Shown one piece after another: positions 1,480-18,643 of a stretch of 64,000 nucleotides of DNA. Numbering within the stretch: position 1 is the first letter of the stretch; each line of letters begins with the position of its first letter. The notes below the pieces were generated by a model. The model worked only from the letters and a program-made list of their open reading frames with translations. It did no database searches and was not told where the DNA came from. Location of the stretch: NCBI RefSeq assembly GCF_039596235.1, contig NZ_JBCNKE010000008.1, forward strand, positions 125,946 through 189,945. Direction: 5' to 3'. The translations under genes and the position numbers were made by a program. This stretch comes from Sphingobacterium sp. (GTDB lineage: Bacteria > Bacteroidota > Bacteroidia > Sphingobacteriales > Sphingobacteriaceae).

Positions 1480-4400
1480 TTACCAATTGTTGCCTGACAT
1501 AATTAATACTTGGCTTTCCGTACCATATCTGATCTCATTAAGGAAAATTTCCTTCCCTTCTTCCAAAGGAATAAGGGAGATACCTCGGCGTTCGTATTCC
1601 GTCTCCAGTGTCTGCGAAACCATTCCGGCACCTTTCCACGGCCCCCAGTTGATCGAAATAACTTTTCCTTTCAGTCGCTTATTCAATACATTGGCATAAT
1701 CATCCAATACGCTGTTTGCTGCGGCATAATCTGTCTGGCCCTTGTTGCCATAAACAGATGCTATACTGGAGAATAAAACGACAAATTGGCAATCCGAACG
1801 TAATTGTTCCGCCAATACACGTAAGGGTTTTACTTTGGTGTCAAAGACGCGTCCGAAAGAACTGGTTGTTTTCTGTTTGAAGAGTTTATCTTCCAGCAGG
1901 CCGGCACCATGGATCACACCATCAAGCTGTCCAAACTGTTCATAAATCTGACGGAGCAGGGTTGTTAATGCAGCCTCATCACAGAGATCCAGTGATTCAT
2001 AAATGACGGTGTTGCCTAAACGTTCCATATCGCGGATAGTCCGTAGGATCTGATTGTTTTTATAGATATGGAGGGTCTCTTTCTCAATTTGTGCTGGTGC
2101 ATGGAATAGTCCTGATTGAATAAGGTGCGCCCTGATCTGCTCCTTGGAGGTCATTGTTTCCAGCTCTTTCGGGATCGGGGTATCTTTCCTTGGATCTGCC
2201 GATCTGCCTACAAGGATGTAGGTACAAGGGTAGGAGGCTGACATATGTTTTACCAACTCGGCGGTAATCCCTTGTCCACCGCCAAGTACAAGGACAACAG
2301 ATTTTTCATCCAATTGGATGTGCACTTCTTCGCTGCCTGTAGAAAGTGGCGAAGGTATGATATCGACCGTATGCCGCTGATCATTTTTGTAGATAACCTC
2401 TACGGTTTTATCAGTCGTCAAGATCTCTTTTAGTGCAATTTCAGCAATTTGATCTGTTTCCTGTGGTGTGCTTAGACTGATCAATCGACAGTTGGTCTGC
2501 TCAAACTCACGGGCCAGACTTTTAAACAGGCCTGGGTACCCCTGATAGTGGCGCAATGCATGTGTATCATTTGTTTTTTCCACATGCGCGGGGATATCTG
2601 AAATTAAATAGACCCATTTGACCCGGTCCAGATCCATCTTTTTGATCAGGTCAACCTGGTCGATAATATTATGTTTGATGGTTGCTGAATAGGTATCTGT
2701 AATGATCAGCCCATCGAAGACGGCGAGATCCTGTTCTGGATTGACCAATTCGGCGATGGCACCATGTTTTTCGAGCATGGTTTTGATGGCCAAGGTATGT
2801 TGTCCATGATCTGGAGCAATGGCAAAACGTTTGCCCTGTAAAATTTCTGTTTCTTGTGCTGAGGCTGCATCTGCTGGTGTCAGGTCAAAACGAAGTCTGG
2901 ACAAGAGCCTCTGCTCAGGAGCTGTTTCACTAACTTCACTGATCCAGGAAGCAAGACCGTTAAGGGTTTTAATCGCTGCTAAGGTTTCCATCAGATCTTC
3001 GGCATGTTCGAGATCCTCCCCAAAACCAATTTTGGTCTTCAGTTCAGCAATGATTTCCATCCGTTTGATCGAGTCTATGCTCAAATCCGCTTCCAGGTCC
3101 AAATCCAATCCTAACATTTCTTTCGGATAACCGGTTTTTTCACTGACGATATCCAATATTGCTGTTTGTAATTCCGCAAGGGAGAGCGCAGACTGATTTG
3201 CCGTTGCAGATGTCGATACTGCTATTTGACCATTTGGCGTGGACAATGCTGTTGGATCACTGAACTCCGTTAACCAGGAAACCAGACCATTTAAAGTTTT
3301 GATGGCAGCTAATTGTTCCATGATTGTGTCTTCGTTTGTCTGATCGAATTTCAGTGTTTCGAGCTCGGTGCGCAGTGTTCCTATAATTTCGACCCGTTTG
3401 ATTGAATCGATGCTGAGATCAGCTTCCAGATCCAAGTCCAAACCCAGCATTTCATGTGGATAGCCAGTCTTGTCGCTTACCACCTGCAACAATAAAGTTT
3501 TGATGTCTTTAGTTTTTACAGCTGTTGTGACAGTAGAATTTTCGTTAAGAGCCGGTTGAACGGGAATGTGGGGGGGCTGATCAGCGGTAACATTTGGTGA
3601 AGGAGTCGAATAAACCGGCGTTGGGGGTACTTGTGGGTTTTGCCCCAAAAAGGAAAGCATAACATCACGTTGCGCCTGGATCAGCATTTTCATGCTGTTT
3701 AAATATTCTTGGAGCATACGCTCAGCAGAAGGTTGTGCTTCTGTCGTTGCAGCTATAGGGTTGTTAAGGTTACTCATTTTGATGGGGCTTATGATGGGCA
3801 ATGCACCATTGACAGGTAAAGATCCGTTGGTTGGATGTGCAGCCTGTCCGTTGACACGCCAGATCGTAGGCTTTTTCTTATATAAATTTGGTTGATCTAG
3901 CTGGATTGGTTGAACCTGACGGCCTTCAAAAAGTTTATCAATCGAAAAATTGCGACCTGTTCCCAAATATTGCGCAAGCATACAGAGGAGATGCGTCAAT
4001 TTGTTACGGTTGCTATCTTCTACATATAAGGTTAAGTGATCTTGCTCTAAACAAGATTTGGTCAGGCCGGTCAGTACTTTACCAGGCCCTACTTCGATAA
4101 ATATCCGTGCGCCATCTGCATACATGGCCTGGAGTTCCTCTACAAAGCGGACAGGTTGAACCAAATGTTCCGTCAATCTTGCTTTTATTTCAAAAGCTGA
4201 AGTAGGATATAAGCTTGTTGTAGTGTTTGACCAAACTGGTAGTCGCATTTCTTGGAAAGGAACATCCTTTAACACATTGGCGTAAAGTTCCTTTGACTTA
4301 GCGACTAAAGGGCTATGGAAAGCACAGGCCACTTCCAGTTTTTTAGCGGAGACTCGTTCCTGTTTTAATAGTTCCATAAGTTTCCCGATAGCTGCTGTGC

Positions 4401-7400
4401 TGCCGGCGACAACACATTGCGTCGGTGAATTGTAGTTTACGGGATAAACACCTTCCACACGATTGAGGAGTGCCTTCAACTGTTCCGCATTTGCGTTAAC
4501 AGCAACCATGGTGCCGGGATCGCCATTTTCGACCGAATCCAGGATGGATTGAGCCCGCCTGCTGCTCAGTTCGACTAATCGATCTTCATCAAACACACCA
4601 GCGAAACATAATGCTGGTAGTTCACCATAGCTGTGCCCCGCCAGCATATCCGGGACGATACCGAGTGAATGGAGGAATTTGGCCAAAGCCAGGTCAACAA
4701 TACCCAAAAGTGGTTGTGCCAGATGTGTATCTTTAATGGTTTCTTTTTGTTGTTTTAAAGAGTCAGCATCAAAAGTAGTTGAGGGAAAAAGCACTTTTTC
4801 CAGTTCAGGATACTGCGCGATAAGCTTTCGCATTTCGGGGAATATCACAAAGAGATCGCGAGCCATATTGATACGCTGACTTCCTTGTCCTGGAAATAAG
4901 AACGCGGTTTTCCCTTCTCGTCTATTGACAATAAAGGTGTCTTTGCTTTCAATACCGGATAACACCAGTTCAATTTTCATCATCAGGTCTTCCGCTGTAT
5001 CGGCAACGATGCTGAGCTGTATTGTTTTTTCAGATGCAATAGCTAAACTATACGCGATATTTTTTAGCGGGACGCTATCATTAATATCTAAAAGTGCTTT
5101 TACCTGGCTCAATTGTCCCTTAGCCTCGTCGTAGCTGTCACCACGGAACACAAATAATTCCGAAGGCCAGGATTGTAAGGTTATAGTGTTATCTTCTTGT
5201 GGGTGATTCGCAATAACAGCATGGAAATTCGTTCCGCCAAAACCAAAGGCGCTAATGCCGGCATAGCGTCTTTTTTCTCCCCATAAACCAGTTTCGGCAT
5301 GGAAAGCGAAAGGACTGGTTAGTTCGTTGTAATAGGCATTAGGTTGTCGGAGGTGAAGTGTCGGTGGTTTTACACCATGAAATACCGCTAAAGAAGCTTT
5401 GATAAGGCCCGCCAATCCTGCAGCACATTTTGTGTGGCCGATCTGGGTTTTGACCGAACCTAAATGCGTTTGTGCCGGTAAGGCACCTGAGCGGCTGAAT
5501 AAATTGGTCAGTGCGCTTAGTTCTGTTTTATCACCAACAACTGTTCCAGTGCCATGGGCTTCAACCAGTCCCACGGCTGCTGCACTGATGCCTGCTTGAT
5601 TATAAGCGCGTTCCAGTGCGCGTACCTGACCGATTTTTCGGGGAGCAGTAAGGCCCAGGGCTTTACCATCACTTGAGCCGCCCACACCTTTGATGACAGA
5701 GTAGATGCGGTCGCCATCGTGTATAGCATCTTCATAGCGTTTGAGCACCAATATCGCTATCCCCTCGCCAAGGGCAATACCGTCGGCATCCCGATCAAAT
5801 GTAGCACATCGTCCTTTACGTGAGAGCGCATGTGTGCTTGAGAACATCAGATAATCGTTAATTCCATTATGCAGATCTGCTCCACCGGCAAGCACCATAT
5901 CTGATTTGCCCAGAATAAGTTCTTGACAAGCGAGATCAATCGCTGCGAGTGATGAGGCACAGGCAGCATCTACTGTGAAATTTCGACCGCCAAGATCCAG
6001 TCTGTTTGTGATTCGGCCAGCAATAACATTGGCTAGAATGCCGGGGAAAGAATCTTCGGTGGTATGCGGGAATGCTTCTTTCACTTCCTCATGGAGTTCT
6101 CCGAATACTTGTTTGTAATATCCTCTAAAGCTATAACTGTTGGCAAGGTCGTTACCACCTTCCGCGCCGATGATTACGGAAATATTTTCACGATTGATTT
6201 GTTTTTCGCCATAACCGGCATCTTCCATGGCACGCTTGGCTACCAATAATGTCAACAACTGTGTTGGTTCAATAGCTGCGAGTGACTGCGGTGGAATCCC
6301 GAAAGCCAAGGGATCGAAATCAATTTTCGGAATAAAGCCACCCCATTTGGAATGGGAGACATCCGGACCGTCCGAGTCGGGTTTGTAGTATAATTCTTTA
6401 TTCCAGCGTTCGTCCGGAACTTCGGTTACACTGTCTTTCCCAAGAATAATATTGCGCCAAAATTCTTCAAGATTTTTGGCTCCCGGAAATATACACTCCA
6501 TCCCGACAATAGCAACATCTAACGGTTTTTCACTGGATAAAGGTTGTTCCGGTAATATTGCTTCCTGAATATATAGTTTATTGTCGATGCCTACATGTTG
6601 ATGGAGAGAGTCTAGGGAGATTACCTGATCATGCATGGTTGCGATCTGACCGATCATATACATGCCCAGTTCCAGTTGTTCACTTGTGGGAATATTGATC
6701 AGTTTATCACCTTGGCGTTCTACGCCTTTTGCTGCGATACGAAGGCGACCAACATTTAATTTTTCAAGTTTTTCCCAGATTGCCTTCTTATCGACACCAG
6801 CGGCTAATAATTTGGCTTTTTCTAGGTTGAAGTGTTGCGCAAAAGCCGTATTTAAGCAACGGGTTTCATGTCCTGGCGCTGTCTCCAGGAGAACAGTATC
6901 TTTGGCTTGCATCGCCTGTCTTTGAAACTCTTCCTGAATTGCACCTGTACTGACAGCTTCCTGTGTATATAGATATGCCGTTCCCATCAATACACCTATT
7001 TTTACACCCCGAGCTGCCAAGGGAGCTGCCATAATGGAAACAAACGCTGTAGAGAATGCATTGTGGATGCCACCGGCAAAAAATATGCTGATCTCTTCCG
7101 GATGATCTTCTTTTAAAATGCGTTCAATTTGTTTTTCCCAAAGCACAGTACTTGAAAGAGGACCTACATGGCCACCGCATTCGCGGCCTTCGAAAATGAA
7201 ATTTTTTGCGCCCTCCTTTAGAAACATGTCGAGCAGGGTAGGAGATGGTACGTGTAGAAATGTTGTTATGCCTGCTTTTTCAAATACCTTAGCCTGTGCT
7301 GGTCGACCACCGGCAATCAGTACAACGGGCGGTTTAGCTTCCAGGATATAGGCCGTTTGTTCTTCACGCAATTCCTGTGGCGCAAAGCCTAGGATACCTA

Positions 7401-8454
7401 CGCCCCAAGTTTTTTTGTCAACGAGTTGTTTGGTTTCCATAACCAAGTTTTTGGCTTGTTCACCACCCAGCAGGGATAGGGCAACAAATGGGAGCGCTCC
7501 GGCTTCCGCTACGGCATTTGCAAAAGCAGGGACATCGCTGACACGGGTCATGGGCCCCTGTGCGATTGGATAACGCAGGCCAAGTTGTTGTGCCAGTACA
7601 TTTCCACCGTCTATTGGTTGCAGCGCTTTTGCCTGTTTTAAATGACCGTACATGGCTTCCTTAAATCCGAAAACAAGTTTTTTTAATGTCCTAAAATCTT
7701 CGTAAAGATCGATGGCCAAAGAGATATCTTGCCCCATAGGTATATAACTAATTGCTGGATCCAGGCCAGTGAAATAGGATCGGAGTTCGGCTGTATCAAC
7801 CTGATCCGATAAGGCCGGCGAGTTTGGACGTACCAGTACACGGTGGTTGGCGATGATTTTAGTTTCAGTTCCATTTAGCTTTCCACAGAGCGTTTTGAAG
7901 TCCCGTGTAAATGAGCTTTCGGGAAACAGCGCGAGCTGACTGTCCAATACAATTCCAGTAGCACCAAGTGCTTTTGCCGCAGCCGCTGTATGAAGACCTA
8001 TGCCGCCCTGTATCCAGACAGGGATGGACTGAATTTTATTGATAATCCGTTGGAAGAGTACAAAGGTGGATTCATATCCAACGAGTCCGCCAGCTTCATT
8101 CCCTTTTATGATAATTCCTGCAGCTCCTTGTTGCTCTGCTTGCAAGGCCTGTTCAAGGCTACAAACCTGATACACAATAGACGAGTGTTGAGCCGTGGGT
8201 ACAGGGCTGCCAAAAGGAAGAATGATGACGCTTACTTTCGCTGGGATTTGAAGGGATAGTAATTTATCATTCGGAAAATAAATTCCATAATTAAATAGAG
8301 CAGTCTGATCAAGTTGATTCAGTGCTTCCTGAGCATTGGCTAAGTCGTGCCCCAAACTTAATACGGGAAATACACCCGCTTGATGGAGTTTGGGCATCAG
8401 ATTGGCGTCAGGCTTTTCAAAAGGCGTTAATCCAATAATGGTTAAATTTTTCAT
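1480..8454 (-). CDS. Iterative type I FAS/PKS, 2324 aa: two FabK/nitronate-monooxygenase-like (ER) domains, KS, AT, 2 ACP, KR
   Basis: ER-like motifs YPIAQGPMTRVS, EGRECGGHVG and FAGGI; KS DAACASSL/HGTGT/GHTKCAAG; AT GHSYG and AFHS; two ACPs LEADLSIDSIKR; KR GGGQGIT, VIHGAG, YAAAN. Confidence 0.93.
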   Translation of the reverse strand: MKNLTIIGLTPFEKPDANLMPKLHQAGVFPVLSLGHDLANAQEALNQLDQTALFNYGIYFPNDKLLSLQIPAKVSVIILPFGSPVPTAQHSSIVYQVCSLEQALQAEQQGAAGIIIKGNEAGGLVGYESTFVLFQRIINKIQSIPVWIQGGIGLHTAAAAKALGATGIVLDSQLALFPESSFTRDFKTLCGKLNGTETKIIANHRVLVRPNSPALSDQVDTAELRSYFTGLDPAISYIPMGQDISLAIDLYEDFRTLKKLVFGFKEAMYGHLKQAKALQPIDGGNVLAQQLGLRYPIAQGPMTRVSDVPAFANAVAEAGALPFVALSLLGGEQAKNLVMETKQLVDKKTWGVGILGFAPQELREEQTAYILEAKPPVVLIAGGRPAQAKVFEKAGITTFLHVPSPTLLDMFLKEGAKNFIFEGRECGGHVGPLSSTVLWEKQIERILKEDHPEEISIFFAGGIHNAFSTAFVSIMAAPLAARGVKIGVLMGTAYLYTQEAVSTGAIQEEFQRQAMQAKDTVLLETAPGHETRCLNTAFAQHFNLEKAKLLAAGVDKKAIWEKLEKLNVGRLRIAAKGVERQGDKLINIPTSEQLELGMYMIGQIATMHDQVISLDSLHQHVGIDNKLYIQEAILPEQPLSSEKPLDVAIVGMECIFPGAKNLEEFWRNIILGKDSVTEVPDERWNKELYYKPDSDGPDVSHSKWGGFIPKIDFDPLAFGIPPQSLAAIEPTQLLTLLVAKRAMEDAGYGEKQINRENISVIIGAEGGNDLANSYSFRGYYKQVFGELHEEVKEAFPHTTEDSFPGILANVIAGRITNRLDLGGRNFTVDAACASSLAAIDLACQELILGKSDMVLAGGADLHNGINDYLMFSSTHALSRKGRCATFDRDADGIALGEGIAILVLKRYEDAIHDGDRIYSVIKGVGGSSDGKALGLTAPRKIGQVRALERAYNQAGISAAAVGLVEAHGTGTVVGDKTELSALTNLFSRSGALPAQTHLGSVKTQIGHTKCAAGLAGLIKASLAVFHGVKPPTLHLRQPNAYYNELTSPFAFHAETGLWGEKRRYAGISAFGFGGTNFHAVIANHPQEDNTITLQSWPSELFVFRGDSYDEAKGQLSQVKALLDINDSVPLKNIAYSLAIASEKTIQLSIVADTAEDLMMKIELVLSGIESKDTFIVNRREGKTAFLFPGQGSQRINMARDLFVIFPEMRKLIAQYPELEKVLFPSTTFDADSLKQQKETIKDTHLAQPLLGIVDLALAKFLHSLGIVPDMLAGHSYGELPALCFAGVFDEDRLVELSSRRAQSILDSVENGDPGTMVAVNANAEQLKALLNRVEGVYPVNYNSPTQCVVAGSTAAIGKLMELLKQERVSAKKLEVACAFHSPLVAKSKELYANVLKDVPFQEMRLPVWSNTTTSLYPTSAFEIKARLTEHLVQPVRFVEELQAMYADGARIFIEVGPGKVLTGLTKSCLEQDHLTLYVEDSNRNKLTHLLCMLAQYLGTGRNFSIDKLFEGRQVQPIQLDQPNLYKKKPTIWRVNGQAAHPTNGSLPVNGALPIISPIKMSNLNNPIAATTEAQPSAERMLQEYLNSMKMLIQAQRDVMLSFLGQNPQVPPTPVYSTPSPNVTADQPPHIPVQPALNENSTVTTAVKTKDIKTLLLQVVSDKTGYPHEMLGLDLDLEADLSIDSIKRVEIIGTLRTELETLKFDQTNEDTIMEQLAAIKTLNGLVSWLTEFSDPTALSTPNGQIAVSTSATANQSALSLAELQTAILDIVSEKTGYPKEMLGLDLDLEADLSIDSIKRMEIIAELKTKIGFGEDLEHAEDLMETLAAIKTLNGLASWISEVSETAPEQRLLSRLRFDLTPADAASAQETEILQGKRFAIAPDHGQHTLAIKTMLEKHGAIAELVNPEQDLAVFDGLIITDTYSATIKHNIIDQVDLIKKMDLDRVKWVYLISDIPAHVEKTNDTHALRHYQGYPGLFKSLAREFEQTNCRLISLSTPQETDQIAEIALKEILTTDKTVEVIYKNDQRHTVDIIPSPLSTGSEEVHIQLDEKSVVLVLGGGQGITAELVKHMSASYPCTYILVGRSADPRKDTPIPKELETMTSKEQIRAHLIQSGLFHAPAQIEKETLHIYKNNQILRTIRDMERLGNTVIYESLDLCDEAALTTLLRQIYEQFGQLDGVIHGAGLLEDKLFKQKTTSSFGRVFDTKVKPLRVLAEQLRSDCQFVVLFSSIASVYGNKGQTDYAAANSVLDDYANVLNKRLKGKVISINWGPWKGAGMVSQTLETEYERRGISLIPLEEGKEIFLNEIRYGTESQVLIMSGNNW

Positions 8455-9000
8455 GCATTGATGATCTTGAAAATATAATAGCAGGAGATCCCATAACAGA
8501 AATCAAAACCGTAGTGGTATTGACGGGGGGGCTGTTATGTTGGAATAAAAGTAATTAATTTCTATTATATTTTTAACAATAAAGGTAATTTGATAATGAT
8601 TTTTTAACAAAAAAGGAATAAATGCCTGAGTATTATTAACCATGAGGCTACAAATTTGTTTAAATTCAGTCGTAGACCGTTTTTTGGATCTATGATTCAA
8701 AAAAAAATAAATATTCATTTTATGTCTGAATAACTAAATGGATAATTTTATCTCAGAAGGCTTTTTTAATTGTGTTTTATCGCAATAGGTTATCATACTT
8801 TATTTTTACATTATTTGTATAACCTGCTTTTGAACCATCTGTATAATGGATAAGATTAGCGGCACGTATGGTAACCTACTTCGCTTATTGGTTTATATTT
8901 AACTTTTTAGTTAAATATGAATAGCAGCTAATATCTTTCAATAGATCAGGTGATTAGTTTTATTTTTGCATTTTTACTTGCAAAGAATGCTTGATAAGCG

Positions 9001-9008
9001 TATATTTG
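9001..9008 (+). promoter_or_regulatory. Bacteroidota housekeeping promoter -7 element (TATATTTG) of tRNA-Pro copy 1
   Basis: Matches TAnnTTTG, 30 bp upstream of the tRNA; TTG at 8978-8980 at a 20-nt spacing. Confidence 0.75.
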
Positions 9009-9037
9009 TGCCACACAAAAACAAGGTGATACCTTTT

Positions 9038-9111
9038 CGGGGTGTAGCGTAGCCCGGTATCGCGCCACATTTGGGATGTGGAGGTCGTAGGTTCGAATCC
9101 TGCCACCCCGA
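9038..9111 (+). tRNA. tRNA-Pro(TGG), copy 1
   Basis: Cloverleaf: acceptor CGGGGTG/CACCCCG, anticodon arm CCACA-TTTGGGA-TGTGG, T-arm GTAGG-TTCGAAT-CCTGC; CCA not encoded. Confidence 0.97.
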
Positions 9112-9252
9112 CTAAAAAAGCTCTAACAAAAGTTAGGGCTTTTTTTGTTTCTAGGCAGAATGAGAACCTACGACCTAATAAGGAGCTGCGAGGTTCGATC
9201 CGGAGAGGGTTCTATGTCGTGTGGGCATTGTGTGGCTAATTTAATCCTGCCA
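9112..9252 (+). repeat. tRNA-linked repeat unit, degenerate copy A
   Basis: Matches the units at 11539-11684 and 11685-11790: TTTCTAGG..ATGAGAACCTAC..AGGAGCTGCGAGGTTCGA, ending AATCCTGCCA. Confidence 0.85.
9114..9147 (+). terminator. Intrinsic terminator after tRNA-Pro copy 1
   Basis: AAAAAAGCTCTAAC-aaaa-GTTAGGGCTTTTTTT. Confidence 0.85.
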
Positions 9253-9657
9253 TTCTAGCTAAAATCATTTATTATCAGGTTTTTTTGAATATGTTTCGGA
9301 CATTTTTTTTTCAATATTAAGATAGATAAGTTTAGCTTAATGGGGGCTAATGTTACAAGATATAAACTCGTGTCTCCCCGTTTGGTGTTTGCTTTTGCTA
9401 ACGAATTATCAAAATAAGCTGTACATGAACATTGAATTGACATGGCGGGTTAAGCTAAATTAAAAAATTTACACATTTAGTCGCTAAATGTATTTCACAT
9501 TCCTAACAAAATTTGTAATTTACTTCTTTGAAATTGCACGGTTAAGTTTCCGCTAAATTGAACTTTTCATCTAATTTATCCGATACTTCGCCAATGCATT
9601 CTTGGTCGTAACCATGCTATGAGGCCAGCCGGATAAAATTTTTCTAATTGAACTAAA

Positions 9658-10551
9658 ATGAATATTAATTTTTTCTTAAACTTAGTTATTCTGTTGTTAT
9701 TGTTGATTTTACCGGAAATGGTCTTTTCTCAATCAACTGATTTTACCATCCAAGAAGTTAAGTTTAAAAGCCAAGGTGTTACTCTTGCGGGGTCAATTTT
9801 AATGCCTAAAAATCCATTTGCGGCAGTTGTGATTGTTCACGGGTCTGACCCGGTAAAAAGAGAAATCGAGTTTGCAACACGTCTTGCTAAAGAAGGTGTT
9901 GCTGTATTGACCTATGATAAACGTGGAGTTGGACAATCTGAAGGTATATATGTTGGACCGTCTGTTGGTACGAATAATATTGACACAACAAACCTTAATT
10001 TATTATCTAACGATGCAAATGAAGCAGTAAAAACATTTAGAACCTATTTGAAAGAGAAAAAGGTGCCAATTGGTTTAGTCGGGTTTAGTCAGGCAGGATG
10101 GATAATTCCGATTACTGCAAGTAAGAACCAACAGATTGAATTTATGGTATTATTTAGTTGTCCTACGATAACAACTGTAGAACAACTCCGATTTCAGTTT
10201 TATACGAATGGCAATAATAACTTTTGGGAACATCATACAGATGCCGATGCCCGTGAGCATATTAAAAATGACCCAGACAAATATCAATTTGTAGCGACTG
10301 ACCCAAAAATTTCTTTGAATATGCTTTCAGTTCCTGGACTTTGGCTTTTTGGAGAGAAGGATATACAAATTCCCGTAAAGTTGTGTATAGAACAATTAAA
10401 CTCATTTAAAGTACAAGGCAAACCTTTTGAATACACGTTATTTCCAACATTAGGACATGATACTTCTTCGGAAAATATTTCAGAACCCTTCGATATTTCA
10501 GTTCAATGGATAAAGCAGAAAACGTTGAACATGAAACTGTCTAAAAAATGA
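9658..10551 (+). CDS. Secreted alpha/beta hydrolase (peptidase S9/S15-like)
   Basis: Signal peptide, VHGSDP, YDKRGVG, nucleophile GFSQAG, GEKDIQIP, LGH. Confidence 0.85.
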   Translation: MNINFFLNLVILLLLLILPEMVFSQSTDFTIQEVKFKSQGVTLAGSILMPKNPFAAVVIVHGSDPVKREIEFATRLAKEGVAVLTYDKRGVGQSEGIYVGPSVGTNNIDTTNLNLLSNDANEAVKTFRTYLKEKKVPIGLVGFSQAGWIIPITASKNQQIEFMVLFSCPTITTVEQLRFQFYTNGNNNFWEHHTDADAREHIKNDPDKYQFVATDPKISLNMLSVPGLWLFGEKDIQIPVKLCIEQLNSFKVQGKPFEYTLFPTLGHDTSSENISEPFDISVQWIKQKTLNMKLSKK

Positions 10552-10827
10552 AAATAGAGTATTTTAAAGGCTATTCCACAAGCGGGTAATTTCACTATCT
10601 TTCTTTAATGCATAATAGCCATCGGCCAAACGCCCTTCCCTCTTTTTATTATCTTCGCTATCATGATGTCATAGTTTGTTGATACAATGGTTAATGTGTC
10701 GGATCGTATTTTGTATTCTTTTACAATTTCAATTGGTCACCCGGGCTAAAAAAGCTGTTTTTTCTTGACGCAGCGAAGTTCACGTAGTTTGGTATAATAC
10801 TTGTAAGTGTACCCCAAAAAATAAATT

Positions 10828-11262
10828 ATGAGCACATTAAAAATGACTTTTAAGAATTGGATGCTGCTATTGCTTGGAGTAATCGCGGTGGGAATGACGT
10901 CTTGCAGTAAGGAAACCGTTGATAGCATCGGAAGAGATGCCGCATTGAATATAATCCGTACAGGTAATTGGGAACGTTGGACTAAAACTGTTGAAGGTAA
11001 TAGTGTTGCTGAGCTAAATGTGACCCGTGAAATGATGGAGCAGGGAGAGACACTTAATTTTGATAAAGACGGTGCTTGGCATAAGAAAAAAGATAATACT
11101 GCAGTTTCTTACGACTACAGTATGCCTGATGCAAAAACGATGATTTTTGATGGTGTTGAATATAAAATACAAGAAAATATTGTTTCTACAGTCTCCAAGC
11201 TAACATTAGTTAATCAGCAAGGGGCAATTAAAACAACGATGGTAATCAAGAGAAGTTGGTAA
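10828..11262 (+). CDS. Lipoprotein, hypothetical
   Basis: SPII signal with lipobox MTSC followed by SKET; beta-rich mature part; long hairpin at about 11274-11317 after the stop. Confidence 0.75.
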   Translation: MSTLKMTFKNWMLLLLGVIAVGMTSCSKETVDSIGRDAALNIIRTGNWERWTKTVEGNSVAELNVTREMMEQGETLNFDKDGAWHKKKDNTAVSYDYSMPDAKTMIFDGVEYKIQENIVSTVSKLTLVNQQGAIKTTMVIKRSW

Positions 11263-11403
11263 CCTGATCCTAGTTAGATTGTCATGAGGTTTAAATTAAA
11301 CCTCATTGACAATCTAATTTTTCGTCTATACATATCATTTTCACGCTCGTTTTAAAATTATTTATCAATGTGTCAGTGTTTTAAGTGTGTGGGTGAAAAT
11401 AAT

Positions 11404-11434
11404 TTTGAAAACAAAATATTTTAGTGTACTTTTG
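11404..11434 (+). promoter_or_regulatory. Bacteroidota -33/-7 promoter of tRNA-Pro copy 2
   Basis: TTTG (11404-11407), 19-nt spacer, TACTTTTG (11427-11434). Confidence 0.85.
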
Positions 11435-11463
11435 TGCCACACAAAACAAAGGTGATACCTTTT

Positions 11464-11537
11464 CGGGGTGTAGCGTAGCCCGGTATCGCGCCACATTTGG
11501 GATGTGGAGGTCGTAGGTTCGAATCCTGCCACCCCGA
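11464..11537 (+). tRNA. tRNA-Pro(TGG), copy 2, identical to copy 1
   Basis: Same 74-nt sequence as 9038-9111. Confidence 0.97.
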
Positions 11538-11538
11538 C

Positions 11539-11790
11539 AAAAAAGCTCGACGAAAGTCGGGCTTTTTTTGTTTCTAGGCAGGATGAGAACCTAGGGCCTA
11601 TTCAGGAGCTGCGAGGTTCGACCCAAAGGGGGCTCAGGGCAGAGTCTGAGGCATGCGCGGCTGAGCCAATCCTACCACCCCGACAATAAAGCTCGACGAA
11701 AGTCGGGCTTTTTTTGTTTCTAGGTATGATGAGAACCTACGACCTATTAAGGAGCTGTGAGGTTCGATCCGAAGGAGGCTCAGTAAGCCG
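11539..11790 (+). repeat. Tandem tRNA-linked repeat units (146-bp period), each starting with a terminator hairpin
   Basis: The tRNA 3' end AATCCTGCCACCCCGAC (11522-11538) recurs as AATCCTACCACCCCGAC (11668-11684); the hairpin GCTCGAC-GAAA-GTCGGGC plus T tract occurs twice. Confidence 0.92.
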
Positions 11791-11872
11791 AACTATATAT
11801 TTCTTGGACTCTGCACATTGTTAATCGTAAAAGAGCGCCTCAGCCTATGTGTATCTTTACGTTACAAAGGTG

Positions 11873-11892
11873 CCATCTTATAAGATGGGACG
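11873..11892. promoter_or_regulatory. Candidate operator palindrome CCATCTTATAAGATGG(GACG), site 1
   Basis: Perfect 16-bp palindrome upstream of the AraC pair; related sites at 14602 and 35465. Confidence 0.55.
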
Positions 11893-12100
11893 ATGCGCGC
11901 GCGAGGTTTACGCAATTTTGAAAGCAGTCTCAATAAAATCGCAATCTATTGGCCTTGGTTTTATGCGAAGATTTCGATTTGATAAATAACAGAAAAGAGA
12001 GTATATTGCTGATGTCCAATGTTTGTAAAAATGACTTTTAGAAAATAGGTGCAGACTCAGAATCAGCTGCTTAATTACAATTTATGCTAACTAATTCCCT

Positions 12101-13261
12101 ATGACCTCAATCTGGCATATCATTTATATCGGTGGTGTCTTTATGGCCCTGTTTCTTTTTATTCTGTTAATCAGCAAACCAAAGAAAAGTGCTGCGGATA
12201 AGATTTTGAGCACCTGGCTTTTCTTCGCTTTTTTTGATCTGATTTTAGTTGGCCTGTACGGATCCGGAGAAATTCTAAGTATGCCGAAGCTGTTTGGCTG
12301 GGAAATGCCTTTTCCCTATTTACATGGGCCTTTCTTGTATCTGTATATTTTGTTTGCTACTGGACAGCAGCGGCATACATGGCGTTATCTGCTCCATTTC
12401 CTTCCTGCTGTGATTGTATCAGTTATACTGGCTTTTGTGTTACCGGACGCGGTCGCAGAATATAAAGGGAAATATTACATGTTGCGGGAATATGATACTT
12501 TCATTTGGATTATGATGTTGGGTTTTATGATCTCGGGGATCGTATATATAATCCTTTCACTAATGTTGTTGCGTCGGCATAGAAAGAATATTGTCGGACA
12601 ATTTTCCAATACGGAAAAAATTACCCTCAACTGGATGCGCTATCTTATTTTCGGTATTAGTGCAATCTGGGTCGTCGTCATTATCGAGGGGAGCCCAGAG
12701 CTATTTTTTGTGGTCATCACGTTGTTCATTTTTTTCTTCGGTTATTTTGGTGTACAGCAGGTAGGAATTTTTTCCCATGCGTCATCGGTACATGAGGTGG
12801 TACCGCTGCGGGAACTGGAATCAGTGGATGAAATACAGTATGACGAGGCCGCCCAAGAGTCTGCTGACAAAGTCAAATATGAAAAGACGAGGCTGGAGGA
12901 ATCTGAAGCTTCGCTCATTCATGGAAAATTGGATGCCCTGATGAAGGAGCAAAAATGCTATCAGGATCCCGAATTAACTTTGGGAGACTTAGCCAAGATA
13001 CTAGAGGTGCATCCCGTTATACTTTCACAGGTCATCAATTCCAGAGAACAAAAGTCCTTTTATGATTATGTCAATACCTATAGGGTAGAGACCTTTAAGG
13101 AATTGTTGTTACGACCTGACAGCAGGCAATATACGATGCTGTCATTGGCCTTCGAGTGCGGCTTCAACTCGAAGACCAGTTTCAATCGAAACTTTAAGAA
13201 GATTACACAGATGTCCCCCAGCGCCTATGCAAAAGGGATCGATGTTCAATTGAAAGCATAA
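12101..13261 (+). CDS. Membrane-anchored AraC-family regulator 1
   Basis: About 7 hydrophobic N-terminal segments; C-terminal AraC HTH (LTLGDLAK, LSQVIN, LAFECGFNSKTSFNRNFKK). Confidence 0.92.
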   Translation: MTSIWHIIYIGGVFMALFLFILLISKPKKSAADKILSTWLFFAFFDLILVGLYGSGEILSMPKLFGWEMPFPYLHGPFLYLYILFATGQQRHTWRYLLHFLPAVIVSVILAFVLPDAVAEYKGKYYMLREYDTFIWIMMLGFMISGIVYIILSLMLLRRHRKNIVGQFSNTEKITLNWMRYLIFGISAIWVVVIIEGSPELFFVVITLFIFFFGYFGVQQVGIFSHASSVHEVVPLRELESVDEIQYDEAAQESADKVKYEKTRLEESEASLIHGKLDALMKEQKCYQDPELTLGDLAKILEVHPVILSQVINSREQKSFYDYVNTYRVETFKELLLRPDSRQYTMLSLAFECGFNSKTSFNRNFKKITQMSPSAYAKGIDVQLKA

Positions 13262-13350
13262 AAGCTGGACAAGGTCAAAAAGATTAACAATATGCTAGCA
13301 GCTGAGCTTTCAATTGTGCTTGTTAGCCTTATTTTTTTAGCTATCTGACT

Positions 13351-14508
13351 ATGATATTAGCTTGGCAGATTATTTATATCGGGGGACTGTCTATTGCGCT
13401 CTTTTTGTGCATTATGATTGTCAGTAAACGTAAAAAGACAATGGCTGATCGGATTTTATGTGCATGGTTCCTTTTCGCATGTATCCATTTGGCTTTTATA
13501 GGCTGGTACGCTTCGGGCTTAGCTCTCAAAAATCCGCAGTTCATTTTGTGGCAGTTGCCATTTCCATTTTTACATGGGCCTTTCCTTTATTTATACATTT
13601 TATTTTTGAGCGCACAGCAGCGTTACCGATGGCGTTATTTAATCCATTTTATCCCAGCGGTTGTCGTCCTTATGATATTAACTTTTGTGCTTCCAGATGT
13701 ATTTGTAAGGACGCAGAGCGAAATAAAGATATTGCCGCAATTTGAAGCTTTTTTCCAAATCCTAGTCGTAGCAATCATACTTTCTGGTCTGACCTACGTT
13801 GTCCTGTCGCTTCGGCTGCTGCATGCGCATCGCCGGAACATAATTGGTCAGCTGTCGAATACCGACCGCATTACACTAAACTGGATCCGGTATCTAATCT
13901 TGGGAATGAGTGCAATATGGGTAGTTGTCATTTTCTCCGATTCGCCACAGACATTATACACCGTTGTTGCCCTTTTTATTTTTTTTATCGGTTATTTTGG
14001 AATCCGTCAGGTAGGTGTCTTCTCAAATTTATCCGCAGCACATGAAATATACGCTCCAAGCTTACTAAAGCAAAGCTGGCAAGACGTCGATCAAGCAATA
14101 CCAGCTGAAAAATTGAAATATGAAAAAACGAGACTGAATGAATCAGTTGCTTCGCTCATCCATGGGAAACTGAACGTTCTGATGAAGGAGCAAAAATGTT
14201 ATCAGGATCCAGAGCTAACTTTGGGTGATTTAGCTAAAAGATTGGAACTGCATCCGGTCATACTGTCGCAGGTAATTAACTCAAAGGAAGGGAAATCCTT
14301 TTACGATTATGTGAATAGCCATCGGGTGGAGGCCTTTAAGGAACTGTTGTTGGATCCCAAAAGTCAGCAGTTTACTTTGCTGTCGCTAGCCTTTGACTGT
14401 GGTTTTAATTCGAAGACCAGCTTCAACCGGAATTTTAAGAAGATTACCCATATGTCTCCCAGTGCCTATGCAAAATCACGCCAGATCACGTTTAAATCAC
14501 TAGATTGA
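13351..14508 (+). CDS. Membrane-anchored AraC-family regulator 2 (paralog of regulator 1)
   Basis: Same architecture; HTH nearly identical to regulator 1. Confidence 0.92.
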   Translation: MILAWQIIYIGGLSIALFLCIMIVSKRKKTMADRILCAWFLFACIHLAFIGWYASGLALKNPQFILWQLPFPFLHGPFLYLYILFLSAQQRYRWRYLIHFIPAVVVLMILTFVLPDVFVRTQSEIKILPQFEAFFQILVVAIILSGLTYVVLSLRLLHAHRRNIIGQLSNTDRITLNWIRYLILGMSAIWVVVIFSDSPQTLYTVVALFIFFIGYFGIRQVGVFSNLSAAHEIYAPSLLKQSWQDVDQAIPAEKLKYEKTRLNESVASLIHGKLNVLMKEQKCYQDPELTLGDLAKRLELHPVILSQVINSKEGKSFYDYVNSHRVEAFKELLLDPKSQQFTLLSLAFDCGFNSKTSFNRNFKKITHMSPSAYAKSRQITFKSLD

Positions 14509-14601
14509 ATAACCGCAGATCTTTGAGTAAACTGTTCATCTTCATGCGCTTTATCGTCTTATCATTTATTTGAAATATTCATTGCCATCAAAAAAAGGTT
14601 T

Positions 14602-14620
14602 CACCTTATAAGATGGAGCG
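14602..14620. promoter_or_regulatory. Candidate operator CACCTTATAAGATGGAGCG, site 2
   Basis: Near-palindrome about 125 bp upstream of the lipoprotein ATG at 14745. Confidence 0.55.
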
Positions 14621-14744
14621 TCTGACAAAAGTGGCTTCTCTATTTTTGGATACTCATCTGTATGGTAGAAGAAATTCTGCTGTTCAGGTGAGCGGAGGAA
14701 ACTCTCCGAAAGACACTAATCATATTAAAATTAAAAAACAGAAC

Positions 14745-15170
14745 ATGAAAAATCGAATTATTAAAAGTGGTGTAAAGACAGGTATATTAGTAATTGCCTT
14801 TTTGAGTTTTGCAGTCGGCTGTTCTAAGGATGATGGCGATGCGCCCAAACCAGTGGGTGATATTCAAGCAGCTATCGGGACGTTTAAAGGAACTATTCGT
14901 GTAGCGGAGCGGGATTACTACAATGCCATAGTCATGGTAACAAAAGAAAGTGACGACCGTGTTAAAGTCGCTGCCAAATCTGGTGAGGCATATAGCGCTG
15001 TGACGCCTAAAATATTTAAAGTGCAGAATATTTCCAATGTTCATATCTCTTCTTCGGGAGGACCATCTGGTTCATTTACCTATATTCTGGATAGTAAATC
15101 CGTTGTTGTTTCAACGGAAAAAGAAGCAGCGACCGAAGTCAGCTTTTATTTTGAAGGTACAAAACAGTAG
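14745..15170 (+). CDS. Small lipoprotein (start reassigned to ATG 14745)
   Basis: MKNRIIK...FAVGC-SKDD lipobox; paralog of 27457-27867; terminator-like hairpin AATCAGCTG..CAGCTGATT at about 15231-15268. Confidence 0.8.
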   Translation: MKNRIIKSGVKTGILVIAFLSFAVGCSKDDGDAPKPVGDIQAAIGTFKGTIRVAERDYYNAIVMVTKESDDRVKVAAKSGEAYSAVTPKIFKVQNISNVHISSSGGPSGSFTYILDSKSVVVSTEKEAATEVSFYFEGTKQ

Positions 15171-15458
15171 TAACACATAGTTCGGTATAGCACAGAACAG
15201 CTTACTGCATAGAAATTAATTAATATATCCAATCAGCTGTGGCTCGGCTCAGCTGATTTGTTTTTTATAGACATCAATGGATGCTTACTTCCTCTTCGGC
15301 TTTGTTGACCTCCAGTATAGGCTTTCTTTTCGTTTTGTCCCTAGGTTTAATGTCAGTGTAGCCTTAGCCTTTTTTAACATGAGATCCCTTGGATAACAGC
15401 GTCGAAACAGTTAAATTGCTGGAAATTTATTGTCAATTAGAATATAAACATAAATAAT

Positions 15459-16439
15459 ATGAAAAGAAAAGCGGCATTTCTTTTGGGGCTTTTGGCCTCC
15501 GCTGCGCTTCCGCAGGCAACTTTCGCTAAAGATTCAATGATGGAATCAATTGTCCAGAACCAGGAGATTGATGGAAAGGAACTAATTGGGCGATGGGATA
15601 TAGAGGTTGACATTAATGGTACGCCTGCACCTTCATGGCTTGAGGTAAAATTGTCAGGTTACAAGACCTTAGTAGGTCACTATGTGAGTACTTCGGGGAG
15701 TGCAAGACCTGTTTCACAGGTTTTTTATGAAAACGGAAAGTTTAAATTTGCGATACCTCCACAATGGGAGAGCGGAAAGATGAATTTAAGTGTGGAAGGA
15801 GAGATTCAAAATGGAACATTGCAGGGCACAATAACAGAGCCTGATGGGAAAACACACCGCTTTAAAGGTGTACGTGCACCAGAATTAAAAAGAACAGCTG
15901 CCGTTAAATGGGGAAAACCGATTCAGCTTTTTAATGGAAAGGATCTATCGGGGTGGAAAGCTACTGGCAAAACAAACCAATGGGTTGTGAAAAATGGTAT
16001 ACTAACCAGCCCTCAATCAGGATCTAATCTTGTTTCCGAACAGAAGTTTGAAGATTTTAAATTGCATGTGGAGTTCAAAATCCCAGCCGGAAGTAATAGT
16101 GGAGTTTATCTAAGAGGTCGTTATGAAGTACAGATTGAGGATAGCCCGAAAGAAGCGCATCCGAATGCAGTGCTGTTTGCTGGTGTATACGGTTTTCTTG
16201 CCGCAAATGAGATGGTGAACAAAGGAGCCGGAGAATGGCAGACATATGATATCACATTGGTCGGGCGTCTAGTGACAGTTGTGGCCAATGGTAAAACAGT
16301 GATTAGCAACCAAGAGATTCCTGGTATCACTGGAGGAGCCTTGGACAGTAGAGAAGCTGAACCAGGCCCGATCTATTTTCAAGGCGACCATGGACCCGTT
16401 GAGTTTCGAAAGGTGATCATTACGCCAGCCATTAAATAA
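15459..16439 (+). CDS. DUF1080 / 3-keto-disaccharide hydrolase family protein, secreted
   Basis: LFNGKDLSGW, FEDFKLHVEF, GSNSGVYLRGRYEVQI, GEWQTYDI, IYFQGDHGPVEFR. Confidence 0.88.
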   Translation: MKRKAAFLLGLLASAALPQATFAKDSMMESIVQNQEIDGKELIGRWDIEVDINGTPAPSWLEVKLSGYKTLVGHYVSTSGSARPVSQVFYENGKFKFAIPPQWESGKMNLSVEGEIQNGTLQGTITEPDGKTHRFKGVRAPELKRTAAVKWGKPIQLFNGKDLSGWKATGKTNQWVVKNGILTSPQSGSNLVSEQKFEDFKLHVEFKIPAGSNSGVYLRGRYEVQIEDSPKEAHPNAVLFAGVYGFLAANEMVNKGAGEWQTYDITLVGRLVTVVANGKTVISNQEIPGITGGALDSREAEPGPIYFQGDHGPVEFRKVIITPAIK

Positions 16440-18344: not shown

Positions 18345-18572
18345 GCTAATTTCTTTTTACTTATTTAGCTTCTGCAGCTAACTGATTTAAGATAGCATCG
18401 TTTTTAACGATTTGGTTGCTAGCTTTCATTTTTGATCTAGAACCTAACTCTACGTTAGTTCCTAATTTCAAGAACTGAACTTCAACACGTGAAACAGTTT
18501 TATTTCTTCTATCTTTTCTTTTTAAACGTGTAACTCCCATTTTGATAATATTTTTATTGTTTAAATAAAACG

Positions 18573-18643
18573 AGGTCGGAAGCGGATTCGAACCGCTGTA
18601 GGAGGTTTTGCAGACCTCAGCCTAGCCACTCGGCCATCCGACC
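18573..18643 (-). tRNA. tRNA-Cys(GCA)
   Basis: Acceptor GGTCGGA/TCCGACC, anticodon arm GAGGT-CTGCAAA-ACCTC, T-arm AGCGG-TTCGAAT-CCGCT; TATTTTTG promoter element at 18668-18675. Confidence 0.96.

Follow-up and report, generated by a model that had tools for sequence, protein, structure and literature searches.

A tRNA-linked repeat behind the tRNA-Pro genes of Sphingobacterium and its probable kinship with the RtT repeats of Escherichia coli

The stretch of Sphingobacterium sp. DNA considered here (64,000 nucleotides of contig NZ_JBCNKE010000008.1, positions 125,946 to 189,945, assembly GCF_039596235.1; referred to below as the window) carries two tRNA-Pro(TGG) genes, each followed on the same strand by copies of a 146-bp repeat that contains pieces of the tRNA 3' half in both orientations. 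We identify this repeat with high confidence as a Bacteroidota (Sphingobacterium) tRNA-linked repeat (TLR), kin of the RtT repeat of the E. coli tyrT operon. It is a known, functionally unexplained family in a new phylum and not a new kind of element.

Two tRNA-Pro genes and three repeat units

The two tRNA-Pro(TGG) genes are identical and are called by both ARAGORN and Rfam. Copy 1 (9038-9112, forward strand, 66 bits with the Rfam tRNA model) is the host of one repeat unit, unit A, and copy 2 (11464-11538, forward strand) is the host of units B and C. Copy 1 is preceded by a promoter region (8978-9037, forward strand) with the box TAtaTTTG, read from the sequence as a TAnnTTTG box, which we take to be a Bacteroidetes-type promoter motif. 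A 122-nt block that holds the promoter region and the tRNA gene is duplicated, 8997-9118 against 11423-11544, with 95% identity (direct repeat D2). The repeat units start at the first base after each tRNA gene (9113 and 11539) on the forward strand, which is the position of a TLR, with one unit behind copy 1 and 1.7 units, head to tail, behind copy 2.

A sequence-only reading of this DNA had described a tRNA-derived repeat in three units, each with a terminator hairpin; all of its motifs and three terminator-like hairpins were recovered where it had placed them, the motifs far above chance. The order within a unit is tRNA trailer and terminator, an antisense segment (GGCAGGAU-GA-GAACCUACGACCU), a 5-nt loop, a sense copy (GGAGCUGCGAGGUUCGA(C/U)CC), an insert of about 45 nt with a GGCUCAG/CUGAGCC hairpin, and a tail (AAUCCU(G/A)CCACCCCGAC). 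A repeat finder returned three in-register copies at 9099-9214 (72%), 11522-11637 (the reference) and 11668-11783 (91%), and the tandem period of units B and C is 146 nt. The proposed number of units and their period hold; the limits of two of them had to be moved, with unit A ending at 9259 in a tail that matches the tRNA at only 11 of 17 positions and unit C stopping at 11783.

Unit B (11539-11684, forward strand, repeat family D1) is complete. Its first part is the terminator of tRNA-Pro copy 2 (11545-11569, with the hairpin at 11539-11568), which reads GCTCGAC-GAAA-GTCGGGC followed by seven T residues and whose stem has compensatory and G.U changes between species. Read as its reverse complement, the antisense segment GGCAGGATGAGAACCTAGGGCCT (11577-11599) runs through the tRNA variable loop and T arm into the acceptor 3' strand, except that GA stands in place of the T-loop bases TC; its family-wide core is GAUGAGAACC. 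The sense copy GGAGCTGCGAGGTTCGACCC (11605-11624) reproduces the T-stem 5' strand and half of the T loop, one base short of the real one, and is the predicted 3' strand of a helix termed P2. The insert, or body (11625-11667), has a hairpin in which GGCTCAG at 11631-11637 pairs with CTGAGCC at 11661-11667; these arms and a spacer of about 45 nt had been reported before, and the distances from AGGTTCGA to AATCC are 44 and 46 nt. A compensatory T-A to C-G change in the insert stem was read by eye among Sphingobacterium units, the helix not being called by RNAalifold. The tail AATCCTACCACCCCGAC (11668-11684) repeats the last part of the tRNA, from T-loop position A58/59 on, and is the predicted 3' strand of a second helix, P1.

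The other two units, also on the forward strand, are less complete. In unit A (9113-9259), the terminator (9120-9146, hairpin 9114-9145) is followed by the antisense T arm (9154-9176), the sense copy (9182-9201), a degraded insert and the degenerate tail AATCCTGCCATTCTAGC (9243-9259). Unit C (11685-11783) is truncated, with a terminator at 11691-11715 (hairpin 11688-11711), an antisense segment at 11723-11745 and a sense copy at 11751-11770; it stops in the 5' hairpin arm GGCTCAG (11777-11783) and the tail is absent.

The antisense segment had been noted as a 13-mer, GAACCTACGACCT, that is the exact reverse complement of tRNA positions 9082-9094. This is correct, but the complementarity actually spans 23 nt (9154-9176 against 9082-9104, 87%), from the variable loop through the T arm to the first bases of the acceptor. 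The 13-mer has five matches in all against 0.65 expected, a number reached in none of 100 shuffles, while GGAGCTGCGAGGTTCGA and AATCCTGCCACCCCGAC each occur three times (0.08 and 0.09 expected, respectively). The longer GAGAACCTACGACCT is exact at 9162-9176 and 11731-11745 and has two mismatches at 11585-11599. A G-quadruplex in the G-rich insert and a protein-coding reading of the units were considered and set aside, the only open reading frames (ORFs) being of 26-61 aa and overlapping the tRNA or the terminator.

Identification, host tRNAs and distribution

[quoted passage not shown] E. coli K-12 has 22 copies at ten loci, with no known function (PMC8144298). For the rrn TLRs RrA, RrB and RrF, transcription depends on polymerase reading through terminator T1, and processing follows (PMC8144298); RtT-family RNAs beside tRNA genes of Actinobacillus pleuropneumoniae are visible on northern blots (PMC4986893). 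Tail identity of this type is found in the window at 16 of 17 positions in unit B and 11 of 17 in unit A, and the units have in common with E. coli both the GGAUGAGAA...GGUUCGA core and the predicted helix between antisense segment and tail. The literature searched, which left out most subscription journals, held no paper on TLRs outside Gammaproteobacteria.

The Rfam model for RtT (RF00391) matches unit B over its full length, at 11563-11685 and ending at the tail, with 17.8 bits (E = 0.41 to 4.6), below the RtT gathering threshold of 45 bits. Unit B is thus a distant relative that lies outside RF00391 as curated. As the weak match is full-length and ends exactly at the unit B tail, the E. 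coli tyrT locus was compared. In tyrT/tyrV the tRNA-Tyr 3' end GGUUCGAAUCCUUCCCCCACCACCA is followed by GGGGAAGGAUGAGAAGCUUCGAC-CAAGGUUCGACUCGAGCG, GC-rich hairpins and GAGU-AAUCCUUCCCCCACCACCA; three RtT copies lie behind tyrV and one between tyrT and tyrV (133-137 bits in Rfam), and the Rfam consensus structure is closed by an antisense-tail helix. Full-length RtT scores below the threshold are graded, with 41.6 bits at locus L089, 38.7 at L122, 29.3 at L145, 28.0 at L127 and 17.8 in the window, and metagenome units align with E. coli RtT hairpin by hairpin. We also built a covariance model, R1, from 33 E. coli and metagenome units and no Sphingobacterium sequence. R1 is to some extent circular, the core pattern used to retrieve its metagenome members having come from Sphingobacterium units. 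In the 64 kb it matched unit B (11569-11685, 35.7 bits, E = 4.3e-6), unit A (9146-9260, 31.2 bits, E = 4.4e-5) and unit C (11715-11815, 17.5 bits, E = 0.049) and nothing else. The low RtT score and the circularity of R1 count against the identification; the E. coli comparison and the Rfam matches are independent of the core pattern. The sequence-only reading had seen a resemblance to poorly understood tRNA-linked repeats of other bacteria, and the repeat is one of them, with the E. coli RtT layout and R1 matches. It had also named a full match to a characterised family as a ground for giving up its claim; the repeat does match a described family, although one without an established function.

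Metagenome contigs were scanned with the core only (GATGAGAACC, 0-4 nt, GGTTCGAHCC), and the figures that follow are for the matches listed, on at least 120 contigs. About one sixth of these are chance matches inside genes and the rest lie 20-120 nt behind a tRNA. Among the matches listed, at least 81 tRNAs of at least 20 anticodon classes have a core no more than 250 nt downstream (Ser four times, Arg three times, Gln, Lys and Pro twice each, and Met, Trp, Glu, Val, Ala, Gly and Asp), and the tRNA's own 3' 14-mer is repeated after the core in 55 of 81. The G+C content of these metagenome hosts ranges from 0.30 to 0.70. In multi-tRNA operons, the unit sits behind the last tRNA and copies that tRNA. 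Immediately 5' of GAU stands the reverse complement of the host T-stem 3' strand and first acceptor bases; for example, GGACCAGGAU goes with the tail AUCCUGGUCC and GAAACGGGAU with AUCCCGUUUC. Co-variation with the host tRNA, which had been proposed as a check, was found: over 24 distinct tails, 114 of 192 antisense/tail cells pair against 86 ± 6 with shuffled tails, none of 5000 tail shuffles reached 114, and slid controls gave 64-78. One non-tRNA body can carry different tails, as at L080 with tRNA-Ser(GGA) and L083 with tRNA-Ser(TGA), and a Sphingobacterium-type body sits on tRNA-Ser at L120. Four lake metagenome loci (L075, L097, L127 and L187) have repeats behind tRNA-Ser(GCT) with array periods of only 88 nt (L075) or 114 nt (the other three). 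No terminator lies between tRNA and unit at these loci, so the repeats must be co-transcribed with the tRNA in those lineages.

In the genome collection we used a pattern of tail, 40-70 nt, GAACC, 0-30 nt and GGTTCGA, restricted to the tRNA-Pro tail. This looser pattern gave 74 loci with a unit behind tRNA-Pro, nearly all of them Sphingobacterium (about 45 species), and five other Bacteroidota metagenome-assembled genomes carry the unit (Sphingobacteriaceae, Roseivirga, Vicingaceae, Salibacteraceae and Flavobacteriales); a sixth match outside Sphingobacterium, in Cyclobacteriaceae, looks like a false positive. Confinement to this locus, the other ground on which the earlier claim was to be dropped, does not apply, the unit being found in those species and behind other tRNAs. 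A stricter pattern, GAGAACC-N14-GGAGCTGNGAGGTTCGA, gave no match in the genome collection or in viral contigs, and in the phage and plasmid collections the tRNA itself was the only match. Within the fetched genome loci the upstream neighbour of a unit is always tRNA-Pro or another unit, and none of the 10 non-Pro tRNAs there, a very small number, has a unit.

Two forms of the Sphingobacterium unit occur. The short one (120-136 nt) has 0-4 nt between GAACC and GGTTC; the long one (146-149 nt), which is that of the window, has a palindrome that reaches further, into the T-stem 5' strand and variable loop. In almost all Sphingobacterium units the tail matches the tRNA at 17 of 17 positions, and the core is near-invariant, while the insert diverges freely. 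Copy number differs between strains and species, the largest arrays having four complete units and a short fifth, and the array-terminal unit is usually truncated at variable points after GGTTCGATC. The window locus is 90% identical over 2.45 kb to that of Sphingobacterium strain CZ-UAM, with equal spacing of the two tRNA genes, and is almost unchanged in two plant metagenomes. A soil-metagenome contig (run X4) joins 11578 to 11789, a 210-nt deletion that keeps tRNA-Pro copy 2 and its terminator and leaves the repeat nearly gone.

The neighbourhood of the units can be described briefly. Just upstream of tRNA-Pro copy 1 lies a single ORF of 2324 aa (1480-8454, reverse strand). The unit A tail AATCCTGCCATTCTAGC is followed by TCATTTATTATCAGG...TTTCGGACAT (9243-9330), similar to the sequence after the unit tails at L065 and L066 (..TTATTATC.GTGGCTTTT..TTCGGACATATTTCGGA). 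The 2.3 kb between unit A and tRNA-Pro copy 2 (9260-11420) hold an alpha/beta hydrolase gene and a small lipoprotein-like ORF, are common to the window and strain CZ-UAM (L055), and may be a remnant islet inserted at the unit tail. Between unit C and a 3-keto-disaccharide hydrolase gene (15459-16439) lie two AraC-family paralogues (12101-13261 and 13351-14508) and a 185-aa ORF. In Sphingobacterium siyangense (L071, protein 93% identical) and strain WOUb80 (L008), about 170 nt separate the tRNA-Pro units from the start of the orthologous hydrolase gene, which implies an insertion or deletion at the array end in the window (11790-15458); the L071 junction sequence preceding the hydrolase gene was not found in the window. 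The tRNA-Cys(GCA) gene of the window (18572-18643, reverse strand) has no repeat, tail copy or obvious terminator behind it, and an ORF-like stretch begins about 40 nt downstream.

Proposed origin of the units and competing explanations

The reading that we prefer, at a probability of about 0.6, is that the units encode a self-folding RNA in the read-through trailer of the tRNA, released by tRNA 3'-end processing, and that the arrays are resized by unequal recombination. The unit would be a self-complementary derivative of the host tRNA 3' half, with the antisense strand placed ahead of its own target, which the insert splits in the T loop. By analogy with E. coli TLRs, RNA polymerase passing the tRNA-Pro terminator would transcribe the unit, and the RNA would fold into helix P1 (antisense segment with tail) stacked on helix P2 (antisense segment with sense copy, tandem G.A pairs at its base), with a few nucleotides at the tRNA 3' end unpaired. 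Each tail (...CCACCCCGA) would in turn be cut by the tRNA 3'-end processing enzymes, again as suggested by E. coli TLRs, to give a small RNA of about 115-145 nt. The repeated tails would let arrays grow and shrink by unequal recombination, which would account for the differences in array and copy number, and they would also give integrative elements additional tRNA-Pro attachment sites. The match of tail and antisense segment to the host tRNA would be kept up by gene conversion or selection. Among the minimum free energy (MFE) folds of units from the window (unit B), from Sphingobacterium and from E. coli, each has P1, P2, at least one hairpin and a free 3' end of a few tRNA nucleotides.

A number of observations weigh against this reading. 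Single units do not fold more favourably than shuffled sequences (z = +0.8 to -2.0). RNAalifold recovered the terminator and P2 in 31 short-form units and missed the insert hairpin, a failure that we attribute to misalignment, and recovered P2 alone in a broad alignment. A good terminator opens each window unit, so expression may be very low, and window units were found in no RNA run among the sequence runs searched; contigs from ant metatranscriptomes and two runs marked as possibly RNA, compared with S. siyangense L071, are ambiguous and come from strains with another arrangement. The tail-less truncated terminal units are conserved in many species, which the self-folding model does not explain, and the soil strain that has lost nearly the whole repeat implies that it is dispensable. 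We would give the RNA steps as such, that is transcription, folding and processing in Sphingobacterium, about an even chance.

The strongest competitor, which we consider possible though distinctly less probable, is a cis-antisense module. In read-through transcripts the antisense segment would pair over about 20 bp with the tRNA 3' half just made, which could mark the precursor for cleavage (for example by RNase III) or block tRNA folding, and might act as an insulator for the genes downstream; tail and sense copies would then play a secondary part. The MFE and centroid folds of 11464-11800 indeed pair AGGUC-G-UAGGUUC-GA-AUCCUGCC with GGCAGGAU-GA-GAACCUA-G-GGCCU (z = -6.35), and truncated terminal units keep the terminator, antisense segment and GGTTCGATC without the tail. 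Over 24 distinct long-form units, moreover, the eight antisense bases beyond GAACC have on average 0.83 mismatches to the tRNA complement, whereas in the sense strand that partners them 5.9 of 10 positions depart from the tRNA. On the cis-antisense reading, an antisense segment that is kept while its sense partner has drifted implies a constraint on complementarity to the real tRNA and not to a local hairpin. This asymmetry is, however, equally explicable by gene conversion from the tRNA gene, so that together with the tail-less units it fits either a function in pairing with the real tRNA or repeated gene conversion. Complete units also hold internal partners for the whole antisense segment, and in the lineages without a terminator between tRNA and unit every precursor would be affected. 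The refolding of read-through precursor suggested by the sequence-only reading is therefore viable as far as the predicted fold goes, but the complete unit has its own partners in the P1 tail and the P2 sense copy, as in the RtT structure.

It is unlikely that the units are a recombination scar or miniature mobile element, that is leftovers of integrative elements at the tRNA-Pro T loop/3' end or an attachment-site-only element, built up in repeated cycles of integrase-mediated insertion, excision and accretion. The T loop is the exact starting point of the units, which direct repeats of the tRNA 3' end enclose in the manner of attachment (att) sites. An integrase gene (Phage_int_SAM_5 and Phage_integrase domains) lies 0.5 kb after a unit tail at L013, with a homologue at the same distance at L120, and single units at L010 and L108 have element ends on both sides; 34 of 57 unit tails are not followed by a further recognisable unit, the next sequence being element-like DNA, ordinary flank or degenerate partial units. 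Nonetheless, a homologue of the L013 integrase is absent from the 64-kb window, array neighbours are ordinary chromosomal genes in nine of ten loci sampled, and the neighbours in the window itself are a hydrolase, a lipoprotein and AraC regulators, with only 129 bp between tails. Homology of the body and GAUGAG core extends across the units of E. coli, the metagenomes and Sphingobacterium, with or without an element close by. Real elements have right ends (...GGTGACA|AATCC) that bear no similarity to the unit, and a circle of 130-150 bp is implausible as a recombination substrate. The earlier suggestion of a footprint of a small non-autonomous T-loop element is not borne out: no homologue of the L013 recombinase lies in the window, the non-tRNA body is homologous from E. 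coli to metagenomes independently of integrases, and unequal recombination explains the copy number. The mobile-element reading is weak as an account of origin, yet the tails serve as attachment sites in relatives. Integrase-bearing elements stand directly after a TLR tail, and not after the tRNA, at L013 (4439-6050) and L120 (3243-4383), and the single repeats at L010 and L108 (1-400) lie between a conserved right end (...AGAGG.GTGGTGACA|AATCC) and left end (AACACTTAC.ACAAGTAAGGTCAAAAACCCG...).

A neutral, locus-confined tandem duplication of the tRNA 3' flank with complementarity by chance is very improbable. Units B and C are adjacent and 91% identical, and the repeat is dispensable in one soil strain; retention behind tRNA-Pro in about 45 species, behind other tRNA classes and in E. 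coli already refutes it, and the core and tail are near-invariant beside a diverging insert. Least probable of all is a self-cleaving hammerhead-like ribozyme (CUGAUGAG, stem, GAAA), to which the GAUGAG core with its 5-bp stem-loop and GA, CUGAUGAG in some Sphingobacterium and GGUUCGAAA in some marine units, and the tandem layout reminiscent of ribozyme satellites had pointed, and which we rejected against the hammerhead core (C3 U4 G5 A6 N7 G8 A9 ... G12 A13 A14, three stems, cleavage site), as window units read GGAUGAG...GGUUCGA(C/U)CC without C3/U4 and A14, these are never conserved together in the family (A, C or U follows GGUUCGA), no stem III or cleavage site is apparent and no Rfam hammerhead model matches even at E up to 10.

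These repeats were treated as a feature of E. coli or Gammaproteobacteria in the papers that we found, and known since 1978 they are still functionally unexplained. Their layout behind tRNA-Pro throughout Sphingobacterium and behind at least 20 anticodon classes in metagenomes of 30-70% G+C opens a comparative approach to TLR function, as does the tailoring of tail and antisense segment to each host tRNA. Complementarity to the tRNA persists in the antisense segment even as the local partner drifts, which points to a constraint tied to the tRNA as such. The units add copies of a tRNA attachment site, which matters for the mapping of genomic islands, and they break short-read assemblies at tRNA loci. 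More tentatively, TLRs could be a single ancient class of structured RNA, present in at least Pseudomonadota and Bacteroidota, that moves between tRNA genes and is re-tailored to them, with a conserved non-tRNA core of GAUGAG, stem and GA(H)CC and with GA-flanked hairpins. Movement between tRNA genes is suggested by the same body occurring with different tails and antisense segments (L080 and L083; L120 and tRNA-Pro). If such a class exists, its function would be tied to the tRNA 3' half, for example in the quality control of precursors made by read-through, or as decoys for the enzymes or integrases whose substrate is the tRNA 3' end.

Comparison with known systems

The window units resemble E. 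coli RtT in position, following an operon's last tRNA in the same orientation, in their tandem arrays and in having a 3' end identical to that of this tRNA from the T loop on. Both have an antisense T arm with GAUGAGAA replacing GAUUCGAA, followed by a sense GGUUCGA, and a predicted closing helix of antisense segment and tail. They differ in host, which is tRNA-Tyr of Enterobacterales for RtT and tRNA-Pro of a member of Bacteroidota for the window, and in insert hairpins, with one in window units against about four in RtT. Unlike RtT, every window unit has an intrinsic terminator, CCA is not encoded and there is no tpr-like ORF.

The tRNA 3'-end repeats that start in the T loop are also like the att direct repeats of the T-loop class of tRNA integration sites. 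However, just 130-150 bp of conserved structured sequence lies between the repeats of the units, and the family also occurs without elements. The order GAUGA, stem, GA is shared with the hammerhead core and with the kink-turn-type tandem G.A motif, which has two sheared G.A pairs at a stem base, and it would permit two such pairs, as read from the sequence; the catalytic nucleotides of the hammerhead are not conserved. When the units are inspected in this way as GAU-GA-stem-GA-HCC, an A, C or U faces the G before GAU, with no clear co-variation.

Among trailer RNAs, 3'ETS-leuZ is a product of tRNA operon processing, which frees it from the 3' trailer (PMC8144298), as is proposed for the window units; 3'ETS-leuZ differs as a single-copy sponge for small RNAs, without tRNA-end duplication or antisense segment. 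RrA, RrB and RrF differ in lying behind 5S rRNA; in vitro, their GGA motifs mediate binding to Hfq and CsrA, whereas no CsrA binding is predicted for the tRNA-linked members (PMC8144298). In the lysT operon of E. coli K-12 (L197:2130-3310), reduced TLRs of about 77 nt stand behind lysT, lysW, lysY and lysZ; these keep the antisense GUGAAGGAU and the tail and lack the GAACC/GGUUC hairpin, which implies that the family tolerates the loss of helix P2. The lysQ-distal and rrnA/B/D TLRs of E. coli lie between two copies of one terminator, so that expression is possible by read-through only (PMC8144298). The lysQ TLR has an unmodified GAUUCGAACC, as do some Sphingobacterium units, and the lysQ trailer follows the same order as the window, with the tRNA, a terminator, GATTCGAACCTGC (GAUUCGAACCUGC...), the tail and then the same terminator once more.

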